Assembly (NCBI GenBank): GCA_030295235.1 | Contig: AP026164.1 | Coordinates: 372,001 to 436,000, forward strand | Length of the DNA stretch: 64,000 bases | Direction of reading: 5' to 3' | Source: Fistulifera solaris | Taxonomy: Eukaryota | Part shown: piece after piece, positions 7,728 through 11,214 of the stretch | Layout of the letters: every line of letters starts with the position of its first letter | How positions within the stretch are numbered: position 1 is the first letter of the stretch | Position numbers and translations under genes: made by a program | Notes under the pieces: generated by a model | Told to the model about the DNA's origin: nothing | The model's input: the letters and a program-made list of their open reading frames with translations, nothing else | The model's database searches: none

Positions 7728-8479
7728 GATTGCAATAGAGTAATAAGCACACTATATCCTTCACATCCGATGCAACGCGAGAGTTTGTGGGAAAGCTCTA
7801 GTTGAATGGAGGAGGTCAACAAATCTTGGATTAAACAAAGGGAGACATCAAGACGTTCGTTTTTCTCCGTCGAGTGTACCAGTAACGTTTTTCTGTCAGC
7901 GTCGGCGGCAAAACTTACAACTCTCATTCTATTGCCAACTATGATCAACGACAATGACCGTTTTACCCAATCAATGTCCATAACCTTATTTACTTTGTAA
8001 GCAAGTACTTGTTACCGGACACGAGGGAAGATGTTCTTCTCAATTCATTCCTGCTTTACTGAGTCACTAGTCCGGGTCCTCTTTCAGCTACTTTTGGACG
8101 AAACGGAATTGAATCTTACAAGACCACTCACTCTAAATAAAGTTGTACCCACCTATCCCTACTTATTCTACGTAACAGCTACGCGAAAACCTGTCCTCTA
8201 ATTGCCAAATTATAGCACTCAACATCATAGAGTGCCCCCAAATTATCGTTTCTTTGCCTTTCTTTAACCGATATCCGATCACCCCCCTGATATCCCATAT
8301 GGGATATCAGTACCGGTCAGAAACTGTAATTATACCTGGTACTGTTTCTACGCAAATGTACTAATGATGCTATGAAATCATGGATCTTAAGTTATAAACC
8401 TTTGCAAAACTAACATATCATTGGTTGTTTCCATTGAAAGTCACCGAATAGTGAGTTGACTATATATAGATTACTAATT

Positions 8480-8962
8480 TTAATTTTTTTTCTTTCCTCT
8501 GTTGTTTGTTGTTGTCTGCATCTTCTTGTAATGGGCAAGTGTCAACTGTCTCACATCCTCATTTTTATGAGCCTCACTGAAGCAATCGTGATCACTCTTA
8601 CCATTGAAAACAGAACAAAGGGGAATTCCACAAGTTTCACATCTGTACCTTGACCTACTGTCCCTTCCTTGAATGGAACAATAGGCACATTTGGATCTCT
8701 GGTCATTAGGAATCTTCTCAGCCCTATGTCCTGCCATTGCCACATTCGGTTCATTTCCAGACATCTCTCCTGCAAGACTGGAGATTAGTTTTCCTTTGAA
8801 CTCCACAATATTTGTTGGCTTATAATCATTGACTCTTTGCTTCTGTGACTCGTTGTACAAGACAAGAGCATTAGAAGTCCCAACATCCAGCAAATAGAAG
8901 AAGAGTTTTAACCACCAACGACTTAGTCCCATCACCGTCGAGTTACAGTGCAACCGGAAATC
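8480..8962 (-). pseudogene. piggyBac transposase C-terminal fragment (post-catalytic helix plus Cys-rich domain)
   Basis: RWWLKLFFYLLDVGTSNALVLYN matches the piggyBac (K/R)W..++F.+LD+...NA..LY segment. It is followed by CAYC...RSRYRCETCGIPLC...CFSEAH (Cys-rich domain). The DDD catalytic core is absent. Confidence 0.85.
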
Positions 8963-9349
8963 ATCTTGCTTGGATGGATAAGTTCGCTGAATTGGCCATC
9001 TTCGACTTGAATACCGGATGGATTCAAAATCTGTGCCGACAATTCAATGATTTCGTGAAACTTTTTTGAAAATCCAGTGGTCTCCAAATCAAATACAACA
9101 TAAAGAATATGTTGCCAGTTAAGTATAGGAGGGAATCGAGGAACAAAAGCAGGCATGGGAGGTGTTGGTGGTGCCACAATAACATCATTTTGATGTACGG
9201 TCGTGTCAGGCACTGAATTTTGGGCTGGTAAACGGTTTCGCGCAGGACAATTCCGTTTGTCATGACCTTCGCTTTTGCAAAGGCCACACTTTCGTTTTTT
9301 TTGGTTGTTGTTGTTGATCATTATCAACCAGATTTGCAGGAGACGCCAT
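8932..9349 (-). pseudogene. Transposon-borne CCHC zinc knuckle plus truncated DEDD (DnaQ-like) 3'-5' exonuclease N-terminus
   Basis: ATG at 9349 (MASPANLVDNDQQQQP), then a homopolymer frameshift near 9300. Reads KRKCGLCKSEGHDKRNCP (CX2CX4HX4C), a Pro-rich linker, then YVVFDLETTGFSKKFHEIIELSA...FSELIHP (ExoI motif). Truncated at about 8962. Confidence 0.8.
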
Positions 9350-9860
9350 GGTGATCGAGATATTGGAATGAGAAAAAGGGCCTTGTGTGGGTGACAGACA
9401 GAGCAAAAAGTGCCGACGAGGTGCTCGATATAGCAGATAATAGGATTTGCAATGTCTGCCTAATTTAAAAACAAATTTCAGAACCAATTTACTTAAATAA
9501 CAAGGATTACAATATCAAAATGGGGATTTCGAAAGTTAAACAGAGATTAAGTTAGGTAACGAAATCTTCGCTAAAATGGGGTATGATATCCCAAATGGGA
9601 TATCATGACCGGATATGGGTTAATATGCTGATGATTAAGACACAAGACGCGGCTCGTTTCGTAACGTTTCACAACTACCCACAAGAGCAATCAATTCGAT
9701 CATCAATGATTCCTTGATTATTCAACTAAGTGAAATTCATTGATACCACTTTTGTTAATAGAAGTGCGGGGAGGCGCAAGCGGCAGTCCATTACTTCGCA
9801 ACAGCAAGCAAAAACAGCTTCTATCGACCAGGAGCAATCATCTCTCATCGCTACTCAAAT

Positions 9861-11214
9861 ATGGAGAAGTTTTGGGGATTATCACGCCTATTGCAAACTT
9901 CAGGTAGCAATACAACAGACGAGGGCAATATGAGCGAAACAGGAGGGAATGCACAAGATACCTACGAATTTGTGGCCTTTTTGCTGTGGTATCTTTTTCT
10001 TGTGCTTTGCTGCATCGTTCCGACGTGTTGTGCGTACCGAAGACGGCGGCTGGTGGAACGCCGGCTGGCGCAGCATCATTTTGATTTGCAGCGGTTACAG
10101 CAGCAGCAACTGAACGGGCATCCCAACTTCTTGCTGCTAGATCAGATTTCATCGTCTAACCCTCAATTGCGAAGACATAATGAGGAATACCGCCGCATCC
10201 GCAAAGAAAAAATCTCAGAATCATTGCAAGCAACGACTGTGGTGAGTATGAACTTAAAAAATATTGATTTCGGACATAAGTTTGCGAACTGAACATGATT
10301 CTAATACTGTAATGCTGCGTACAGGTGCTGATGAATAAAGATTTTGAAACGGAAACAGAACACGGTGGAATCCAGTTAGATCTTGCCACGGATGATTACT
10401 TGGGAGAGTTAGACGACTCAACAACGAGAGTGAAACTACCAGTCGGTGCCGCAAATGGAAACCGCAGTGTTTCAGGGTTGTGCGCTATTTGCTTGTGTCC
10501 CTACAGTGCCGGAGAAAAATTAACGTGGTCTCCGGAAACGTCGTGTCAGCATGCTTTTCACAAGGAGTGCATAATACAATGGCTGGCGAAAAAGAGGAAC
10601 TCAAATGTCCAGTTTGTCGACAAGATTATTGTCAACCAATTCACGTGGATGAGTCCTTTCCTGGCTCCGAAGATCTGTTTCTGGATAGTTTTGCTTTAGC
10701 ATTAAACTATGCTCGATCCCACGCATCGCGGTCATGGGCAGGCGAAGTTAGCAGAGGAAGTGGAGCCGGATCGTTCGCGTTCGGCTTTGAACCACCAGTA
10801 AGAGTTCATGTCATGGGAGGTAACAATGAATTTAGTCTTCGCGATCACAGTGAGGGGGTATCTCAGGATATTGAGATGGGCCCTGCCGTGACCTCTGAAA
10901 GCAGTAGTGCTCCACCTCCACTGATCACAGAAAGTAACGCCGGAGAAGGTGAAGTGATTGATTTATCAATCACTGCGGACATTACTGATGATCACGAACA
11001 ACAATTGGAAACGGCGACTGAAAGCTCGAATGGTGGAACCGCTATGGAAGAAGCTTTGATAGCTAATATAGATGAAGGAGTTGCTGTTGCGCGACGTCCA
11101 GACACTGCTGCGGGTGCGAATCTTGATGGCGAAGAGGGCGCGGAAAATATCACAGTAACAGATGCGGGCGGTACGAATGGGCTTGGTGAGGAAGTTTCAA
11201 GGAAAGATTCGTGA
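9861..11214 (+). CDS. Membrane-anchored RING-H2 E3 ubiquitin ligase
   Basis: TM segment FVAFLLWYLFLVLCCIVP and RING CAICL...CQHAFHKECIIQWL...CPVCR. Intron about 10242-10325. A 1-bp deletion in the A-run near 10590 splits the RING. Confidence 0.85.

Follow-up and report, generated by a model that had tools for sequence, protein, structure and literature searches.

An internally deleted piggyBac-superfamily element in Fistulifera solaris and its full-length relatives, which carry a DEDDh exonuclease fused to the transposase

INTRODUCTION

piggyBac, a mainstay of genome engineering, is the textbook example of a seamless transposon. Its canonical members, represented by the Trichoplusia ni transposase (PB; structures 6x67 and 6x68) and by piggyBat (9c0f), combine a TTAA target-site duplication and CC...GG tips with a transposase that has a DDD catalytic core and a Cys/His-rich tail. 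As described in PMC7351741, the ends of the T. ni element are asymmetric, an internal repeat near the tip (19 bp, palindromic, at bp 17 to 33 of the end) is bound by the dimeric Cys-rich domain, and both excision and integration are seamless. Here, we describe a piggyBac-like element in 64,000 nucleotides (nt) of Fistulifera solaris DNA (assembly GCA_030295235.1, contig AP026164.1, positions 372,001 to 436,000; this whole stretch is referred to below as the window). The element occupies window positions 8268 to 9619 and is read on the minus strand. Of these features, the TTAA duplication, the tips, the DDD core, and asymmetric ends with a palindrome near the tip recur in the element or in the family that it belongs to, and the family's proteins end in a Cys/His-rich tail. 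What sets this clade apart from canonical piggyBac is about 280 to 400 extra N-terminal residues containing a zinc knuckle and a complete DEDDh exonuclease.

Exonucleases have been described in other DDE transposons. KolobokD, a TTAA-targeting DDD/E cut-and-paste lineage of molluscs, arthropods, and cnidarians, encodes a DEDDh (DnaQ) exonuclease that is reported to resemble exuperantia, TREX, and ERI1; the authors propose that it degrades DNA intermediates from the 3' end during transposition (Kojima 2022, PMC9587614). Dada elements of Laccaria and of the stramenopile Ectocarpus carry a DEDDy exonuclease inside the DDE transposase; a role in the processing of cleaved 3' ends has been proposed for this DnaQ-like 3'-5' exonuclease (Kojima and Jurka 2013, PMC3706591). 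ISL2EU carries a YqaJ exonuclease (PMC4122938).

The clade described here differs from each of these. KolobokD belongs to another superfamily, in that Kolobok termini are given as RR...YY in PMC9587614, whereas the termini here are CC...GG and the transposase is DDE_Tnp_1_7. The exonuclease here is nearest to PolC, DinG, and DnaQ, which sets it apart from that of KolobokD as the latter is described, and the two exonucleases were probably acquired independently. Dada, too, is a different superfamily with different target sites; its exonuclease is DEDDy rather than DEDDh and, according to PMC3706591, is not N-terminal but inserted after the second catalytic Asp and before the DxxH motif. Bacterial DnaQ-family domains (PolC proofreading, the DinG N-terminal domain, and Pol III epsilon) are the best sequence and fold matches of the exonuclease, which shares with them ExoI, ExoII, and an ExoIII with His; in contrast to them, its partners in the fusion are a zinc knuckle and a eukaryotic transposase. 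A functional analogy is offered by the Cas2-DEDDh protein of CRISPR adaptation, which trims prespacer 3' ends. That protein (8fy9; profile match E of 1.8e-5) resembles the clade in having a DEDDh domain fused to DNA-integrating machinery, but it is prokaryotic and has no transposase homology, so the analogy is one of function only.

RESULTS AND DISCUSSION

Full-length relatives encode a fusion protein

Intact members of the family are about 3.2 kb long, are flanked by TTAA, and carry one open reading frame (ORF) of about 860 to 930 codons. This ORF encodes, in order, a basic stretch and a CX2CX4HX4C zinc knuckle, a Pro-rich linker, a DEDDh exonuclease, an acidic linker, a DDD transposase core, and a Cys/His-rich tail. 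The family was traced from the two coding pieces of the window element, both of which align end to end with proteins of 855 to 913 amino acids that contain RNase_T (E of 1e-14 to 1e-23) and DDE_Tnp_1_7 (E of about 1e-62 to 1e-68) in one chain. In protein P0007, for example, Pfam places RNase_T at residues 84 to 269 (E of 4e-23) and DDE_Tnp_1_7 at residues 385 to 761 (E of 1.5e-67), and P0011 is similar. When longer proteins were searched with the N-terminal piece, four of the 10 matches (510, 653, 892, and 913 amino acids) contained both PF00929 and PF13843, and the other six were exonuclease-only fragments of 243 to 327 amino acids. A HMMER search with the C-terminal piece returned 340 relatives at E ≤ 1e-3, mostly fragments; among the 16 longest of the 150 relatives listed, 5 have both Pfam domains, and one further protein, P0039, begins inside ExoII.

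The same architecture was found in element DNA. Scanning of metagenome contigs yielded 21 loci, and an uninterrupted frame of 894 to 967 codons is present in five of them (L003, L004, L006, L008, and L009). L002 has the same frame broken by one frameshift, and the remaining loci are partial or decayed. The frame of L003 translates without a stop through the knuckle, exonuclease, acidic/Ser-rich linker, transposase, and Cys-rich tail. TTAA and matching tips occur on both sides of L002 (∼4.1 kb), L008 (3,151 bp, full length), and L011 (a 2.4-kb deleted copy), while L003, L006, and L012 have the tip and palindrome seen in the window at one or both ends. Six loci have the tip CC[C/G]A.ATC. The first-pass annotation, which was made from the letters of the window alone, had proposed an autonomous parent of several kilobases encoding a fusion of knuckle, exonuclease, and transposase, and the ∼3.2-kb TTAA-flanked relatives with one ORF support that proposal; ExoI to ExoIII and the DDD triad lie together in the one ORF of the full-length relatives.

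The window element is an internally deleted copy

The window element is very probably a DNA transposon of the piggyBac superfamily, a non-autonomous copy from the family with this fusion ORF that has suffered an internal deletion. In alignment A1, its N-terminal piece matches the first ∼130 residues of the full-length fusion proteins, and its C-terminal piece aligns from just after GGVDLADMR, the motif of the third catalytic Asp, to the protein end. The deletion thus begins immediately behind ExoI and ends immediately behind the third catalytic Asp, and ∼600 codons (∼1.8 kb) are missing. With the missing ∼1.8 kb restored, the copy would measure ∼3.2 kb, which fits the size of L008 and L003. 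All three transposase Asp residues are lost, and ExoI is the sole exonuclease motif that is kept. When six full-length relatives were compared with the window by tblastn, matches were confined to the two pieces of the element, the best E values, well beyond chance, being 5e-26 (N-terminal piece) and 4e-39 (C-terminal piece, to residues 750 to 905 of P0011). Because of the ∼1.8-kb deletion and the out-of-frame join, the window copy encodes no enzyme. Both ends are kept, however, and it would therefore be mobile only if a full-length copy supplied the transposase.

The features of the locus are as follows, in window coordinates.

8264-8267, unstranded: TTAA target-site duplication at the low-coordinate end, which is the downstream side when the element is read in coding orientation
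8268-8309, minus strand: 3' terminal inverted repeat, made up of a 14-nt tip (8268-8281), a C6 spacer (8282-8287), and a 22-nt palindrome (8288-8309)
8480-8956, minus strand: C-terminal piggyBac transposase remnant, which begins just after the third catalytic Asp and holds the last ∼155 residues
8482-8480, minus strand: stop codon that ends the transposase remnant
8689-8567, minus strand: Cys/His-rich block of the transposase tail
8920-8885, minus strand: RWWLKLFFYLLD, in the transposase remnant
8956-8936, minus strand: RLHCNST, start of the transposase remnant
8957, minus strand: internal deletion junction that joins exonuclease to transposase with a frame shift, 1 nt being common to both sides
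8958-9102, minus strand: ExoI region of the DEDDh exonuclease (ExoI Asp at 9090-9088, Glu at 9084-9082; ExoII and ExoIII deleted)
9057-9034, minus strand: HEIIELSA, in the exonuclease piece
9102-9073, minus strand: YVVFDLETTG, the ExoI motif
9247-9288, minus strand: zinc knuckle CX2CX4HX4C, CGLCKSEGHDKRNC, preceded by a basic KKRK stretch
9295-9302, minus strand: A8 homopolymer, which puts the ATG out of frame with the knuckle
9296-9349, minus strand: start codon (ATG at 9349-9347) and first 18 codons (MASPANLVDNDQQQQPKK); the N termini of relatives begin similarly
9584-9619, minus strand: 5' terminal inverted repeat, made up of a 14-nt tip (9619-9606) and, immediately adjoining it, the 22-nt palindrome (9605-9584)
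9620-9623, unstranded: TTAA target-site duplication on the high-coordinate side

The element is 1,352 bp long with TTAA on both sides, and its inverted-repeat termini extend over 47 nt at 79% identity with one gap. In coding orientation, the 5' end consists of the tip CCCATATCCGGTCA with the 22-nt palindrome immediately after it (bp 15 to 36 of the end). The 3' end consists of the tip CCGATATCCGATCA (reverse complement), CCCCCC, and then the palindrome common to both ends (bp 21 to 42). The two tips fit piggyBac-type 5'-CC...GG-3' termini. The palindrome motif has four matches in the window, all of them at the two ends of the element, and none were expected from 100 shuffles. The first-pass annotation had recognized a piggyBac-like element between TTAA duplications with matching terminal inverted repeats, and both could be placed, at 8264-8267 and 9620-9623 and at the two ends. 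On the combined sequence evidence of TTAA duplication, tips, DDD core (in the family), and end layout, the window element is a member of the piggyBac superfamily.

The layout of the ends is shared within the family. As in the window, the ends of L002, L008, and L011 are asymmetric, with the palindrome abutting the tip at the 5' end and a 6-nt C-rich spacer preceding it at the 3' end. The 3' order of tip, spacer, and palindrome seen in the window recurs in L002, L008, L011, L006, and L003. By analogy with the T. ni element, the subterminal 22-nt palindrome is a putative binding site of a dimeric Cys-rich tail, and this role is likely. Three smaller observations concern the palindrome and spacer. 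The C-rich spacer of ∼6 nt is found at the 3' end only and is conserved across members that differ in palindrome sequence. The half-sites of the palindrome appear to covary between elements, a pattern to be expected where a binding site and the protein bound to it evolve together. The gene call of P0009 starts inside the inverted repeat, so that its first residues are a translation of the palindrome and nearly the peptide of the window end (9571-9690, minus strand); the near identity of these peptides means that the palindrome is conserved between fairly distant members.

Between the ends, the minus strand encodes the knuckle, a Pro-rich linker between the knuckle and the exonuclease piece, the ExoI region, and the piggyBac C terminus, in the order that had been reported for it. 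An out-of-frame junction had been placed near 8962; the abrupt frame break is there, but its position is about 8957. A second frame shift, at the A8 run (9302-9295) before the knuckle, was absent from that earlier reading. In a contig of sequencing run X1, there is one A fewer at 9295, which brings the ATG, knuckle, and ExoI into one frame. The A8 frameshift may be a homopolymer error, either in the window assembly or in the run, or a change specific to this copy. The X1 contig also differs by one A at 7836, in a homopolymer of the unique flank.

The ORFs around the element are those of ordinary eukaryotic nuclear genes, including pentatricopeptide repeat (PPR) proteins, a photolyase, and a Glu/Gln-tRNA synthetase. 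A second copy of the element was not found within the 64-kb window, and none of 90 pattern matches in a viral-contig scan was confirmed.

Both enzymatic domains are conserved across the clade

The transposase part of P0011 was used as a query, and the 120 proteins listed were scored with our own hidden Markov models of the two domains, built from six of them. Exonuclease and transposase occur together in every one of the 69 proteins of at least 780 amino acids. At least part of the exonuclease is also present in 30 of the 51 shorter proteins. Eight of the 21 that lack it are distant piggyBac proteins of canonical length, 25 to 30% identical, and these exonuclease-free proteins are the next nearest to the clade; the other 13 are close relatives and are considered below.

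All eight catalytic residues (D, E, D, H, and D of the exonuclease and D, D, and D of the transposase) are kept in 66 of the 69 proteins, and two of the three exceptions begin after ExoI. By position, the exonuclease residues D, E, D, H, and D are present in 67, 67, 69, 69, and 69 proteins, respectively, and the transposase residues D540, D624, and D744 in 69, 68, and 68. The eight residues are invariant in six proteins that are 40 to 51% identical. Mean pairwise identity among the six is 0.37 in the exonuclease and 0.59 in the transposase core, compared to 0.13 to 0.24 in the linkers. Six Cys and two His residues of the tail are likewise invariant in six relatives. Neither the window piece nor the full-length fusion proteins matched Pfam zf-Tnp_2 when scanned, although the Cys-rich tail is conserved.

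The N-terminal domain is a DnaQ-type exonuclease by sequence and predicted fold

A profile of six full-length proteins was searched against solved structures. The transposase part matched piggyBat (9c0f, E of 3e-37) and T. ni PB (6x67, E of 1e-29), and the alignment with 6x67 runs to residue 594, the end of the PB Cys-rich domain. The N-terminal part matched the exonucleases of PolC (2p1j, E of 5e-15) and DinG (8zef, E of 1e-13) and DnaQ, with weaker matches to ERI1, Cas2-DEDDh, TREX, and RNase T. NCBIfam models gave DEDD exonuclease PRK07883 (E of 3e-24), PolC (E of 3e-19), and DinG; these scores are far below the whole-protein cutoffs, and the similarity is therefore limited to the domain.

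An AlphaFold model of the L003 N terminus, made from an 18-row alignment, has a mean predicted local distance difference test (pLDDT) score of 76, with values of ∼87 to 98 over the exonuclease and ∼80 at the knuckle. The best Foldseek matches of the modeled exonuclease are PolC, DinG, TREX1/2, ExoI, and DnaQ (E of ∼1e-10 to 1e-11). By sequence and predicted fold, then, the domain is a DnaQ-type DEDDh exonuclease whose nearest relatives act on DNA 3' ends. This kinship favors end processing over the countering of small RNAs.

Sequencing-run contigs point to a longer parent and further insertion sites

Run X1 holds 96% of the sampled words of the window, and in runs X2 to X4 most of the window is without contig cover; no RNA run was among those listed for the window. 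The X1 contigs over the element stop exactly at the TTAA ends and at 8957, and at least three different foreign sequences adjoin each element end as loose ends. Because several foreign flanks are found at each end, the element lies at several sites. X1 contig depth is 86 and 93 over the element, ∼19 to 20 over the flanks, and 30.8 on a 59-nt junction contig; depth is not copy number, but these values fit several copies of the element. In three runs of one study labeled soil metagenome, pieces of the element are found exactly, with few differences, or beside other flanks.

The longer parent is visible at the deletion junction. In X2 and X3 there are contigs that are identical to the window as far as 8957 and then enter the missing sequence. 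One contig is exact over 8677-8957 and continues, by hand translation, into ...GGVDLADMR, which contains the third catalytic Asp, and another is exact over 8957-9059 and continues into DEIIALTGIT, the continuation of the exonuclease. Since these exact contigs run past 8957, a longer parent that is identical at the junction exists, and it is probably full length.

One X1 contig of 766 nt (depth of 19.4) covers 9858-10200 with 21 differences in 343 nt, and the other contig there has a depth of 18.5, which suggests two alleles in a diploid host. The 766-nt contig is further anchored over 28 nt at 9668-9695 and over another 28 nt ending at 8265. Because it is too short to hold the element, it gives a weak hint of an empty second allele at this site.

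Run X4 contains a related copy in which 24 other letters replace 57 bases at 8706-8764, with 12 further differences over the next 94 bases. The variant segment is a diverged C-terminal linker region of the transposase.

The architecture is apparently undescribed

Full-text searching did not find literature that connects an exonuclease of the DEDD, DnaQ, or RNase T type with piggyBac; Dfam, Repbase, and Repbase Reports lie outside the coverage of that search. Reviews that name both piggyBac and DEDD do so, in the passages retrieved, in unrelated contexts. The first-pass annotation did not know this architecture as a described piggyBac class, and within the same coverage the literature agrees. 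It is possible, if rather unlikely, that the architecture has already been catalogued, for example, as a Repbase or Dfam piggyBac entry, since Repbase curators have described the DEDD exonucleases of Kolobok and Dada (PMC9587614 and PMC3706591). A paper on a piggyBac exonuclease did not emerge from the full-text literature, however, and the 2022 Kolobok paper (PMC9587614), which lists accessory nucleases and discusses piggyBac, mentions none such in its available sections. The names carried by public records, such as “PolC-type DNA polymerase III” and “transposase IS4,” also argue against prior recognition. Apparently, then, the exonuclease-fused piggyBac elements form a large and conserved clade that is undescribed as far as could be searched.

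The window locus itself is a decayed copy of little interest, but it points to this conserved clade. An active-looking exonuclease that is kept in a natural piggyBac lineage suggests a step of end or donor-site processing that has not been studied. Together with KolobokD and Dada, piggyBac would be the third DDE superfamily with a DnaQ-like exonuclease, probably by independent recruitment. Three such superfamilies, two of which target TTAA, point to a recurrent need rather than to accident.

A possible role for the exonuclease in transposition

We tentatively propose that the exonuclease acts in cis, as part of the transposase, on the DNA 3' ends that arise in TTAA cut-and-paste, a proposal that has a reasonable chance of being right but that we would not yet bet on. 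Two ways of doing so can be envisaged. The exonuclease might trim the transposon 3' ends to the exact tip before strand transfer. Alternatively, it might resect the 3' ends of the donor break and so block simple seamless religation of the TTAA overhangs, after which repair would copy the element back from the sister chromatid or homologue. The knuckle would hold single-stranded nucleic acid for the exonuclease. If donor resection and copy-back do take place, they would give a cut-and-paste element a replicative gain. Internally deleted copies are frequent (the window element, L011, and P0177 and P0015 of Nitzschia inconspicua) and are what interrupted copying repair would leave, which lends weak support to this second option.

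An exonuclease that acts on RNA is a less probable alternative, and we would be surprised if it proved correct. Like ERI-1, the enzyme would break down small silencing RNAs and thereby shield the element from host silencing, with the knuckle binding RNA. CCHC knuckles do often bind RNA, ERI1 chains are among the PDB matches (E of ∼1e-6), albeit over the first part of the domain only, and an exonuclease has no obvious place in known piggyBac chemistry (PMC7351741). On the other hand, the best sequence and fold matches are the DNA exonucleases PolC, DinG, DnaQ, TREX, and ExoI, and every full-length member has the domain in covalent linkage with the transposase, as would suit action at the transpososome.

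More doubtful than action in cis is the most comprehensive form of our proposal. It holds that an unrecognized clade in diatoms, and probably in other protists, has an obligatory N-terminal exonuclease of the bacterial proofreading type, usually with a knuckle; that this exonuclease changes the seamless TTAA outcome, whether by end trimming or by donor resection; and that annotation has kept the clade hidden.

Several observations weigh against our interpretation of the locus and of the clade. Known piggyBac chemistry, seamless in excision and integration, needs no exonuclease (PMC7351741), and the nucleic acid on which this one would act is assigned from domain kinship. The architecture is drawn from relatives that are 36 to 55% identical to the window pieces by tblastn; identity to a 238-amino-acid fragment from the HMMER search reaches 64%. 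On the window itself, the N-terminal piece scores 21.0 bits with Pfam RNase_T, below the cutoff of 24, and a Pfam scan of the C-terminal piece gave no match to a piggyBac model and only weak ones to zf-HIT and FYVE. Pfam matches to the knuckle are also weak, in the window and in the full-length proteins, though its CX2CX4HX4C spacing fits a retroviral-type CCHC zinc knuckle. Among the 69 full-length proteins, the knuckle is present in 38; in many of the others the gene model begins beyond it, and certain lineages appear to lack it. The sequences of the 13 close relatives without an exonuclease match begin at the extreme end of the exonuclease domain, within the linker, or where the transposase domain starts, and several have a non-ATG start. 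We read them as truncated gene calls, but a transposase-only isoform may be among them. The contig depths given above are likewise subject to the caution stated there, that depth is not copy number.

Other origins of the fused domains

In a second alternative, also raised by the first-pass annotation, the exonuclease and transposase would be two co-oriented genes, with the exonuclease a separate accessory protein and the long proteins read-through gene calls. Many database proteins are indeed exonuclease-only, like the six short matches to the N-terminal piece, or transposase-only. However, the five loci with uninterrupted frames have no stop between the domains, and for the family the two-ORF arrangement is rejected on these frames. 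The short proteins come from short contigs or from decayed copies with mutated motifs or internal deletions. We regard the two-gene arrangement as highly improbable.

The least likely explanation is a one-off capture by transduplication, in which a piggyBac element from a transposase-only family acquired part of an exonuclease gene from its host: DNA transposons commonly carry captured gene fragments, and the window does show an exonuclease fragment joined abruptly and out of frame to a transposase tail, but this host-gene origin is ruled out by the junction, which is an internal deletion of a longer fusion ORF, by the exonuclease in all 69 full-length relatives, and by catalytic residues that stay invariant at 40 to 51% identity. 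Those 69 proteins also answer the possibility, named in the earlier reading of the window, that full-length members would prove to lack the exonuclease.

A domesticated single-copy gene was also considered and rejected in view of the terminal inverted repeats, the TTAA duplications, the many decayed or deleted copies, and the eight members on at least six N. inconspicua scaffolds.

Carriers and their annotation

The named carriers include the diatom N. inconspicua, in which one 90% cluster comprises those eight members on at least six megabase-scale scaffolds. Its copies (P0217, P0177, and P0289 to P0294) are named “PolC-type DNA polymerase III,” “DNA-directed DNA polymerase,” or “exonuclease,” and its deleted copies are named “transposase IS4”; “DNA polymerase III epsilon subunit-like” is also among the public record names. 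This naming is an annotation artifact that inflates the count of replication genes in N. inconspicua.

A full-length fusion protein, P0026, lies on a 3.9-kb contig of a metagenome-assembled genome (MAG) labeled as the cyanobacterium Nodosilinea. This contig is probably a eukaryotic transposon contig that was misbinned. Where these elements pass for DNA polymerase or exonuclease genes, as they do in one diatom genome and one cyanobacterial MAG, they distort both gene counts and taxonomic binning.

Most members are found on metagenome contigs of ∼3.0 to 3.6 kb, the length of one element, and the nearest Atlas cluster is 75% eukaryotic. Distant members (37 to 38% identical) are MMETSP transcripts. 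One of these comes from a transcriptome labeled Mayorella sp., an amoebozoan, and may derive from prey or a contaminant.

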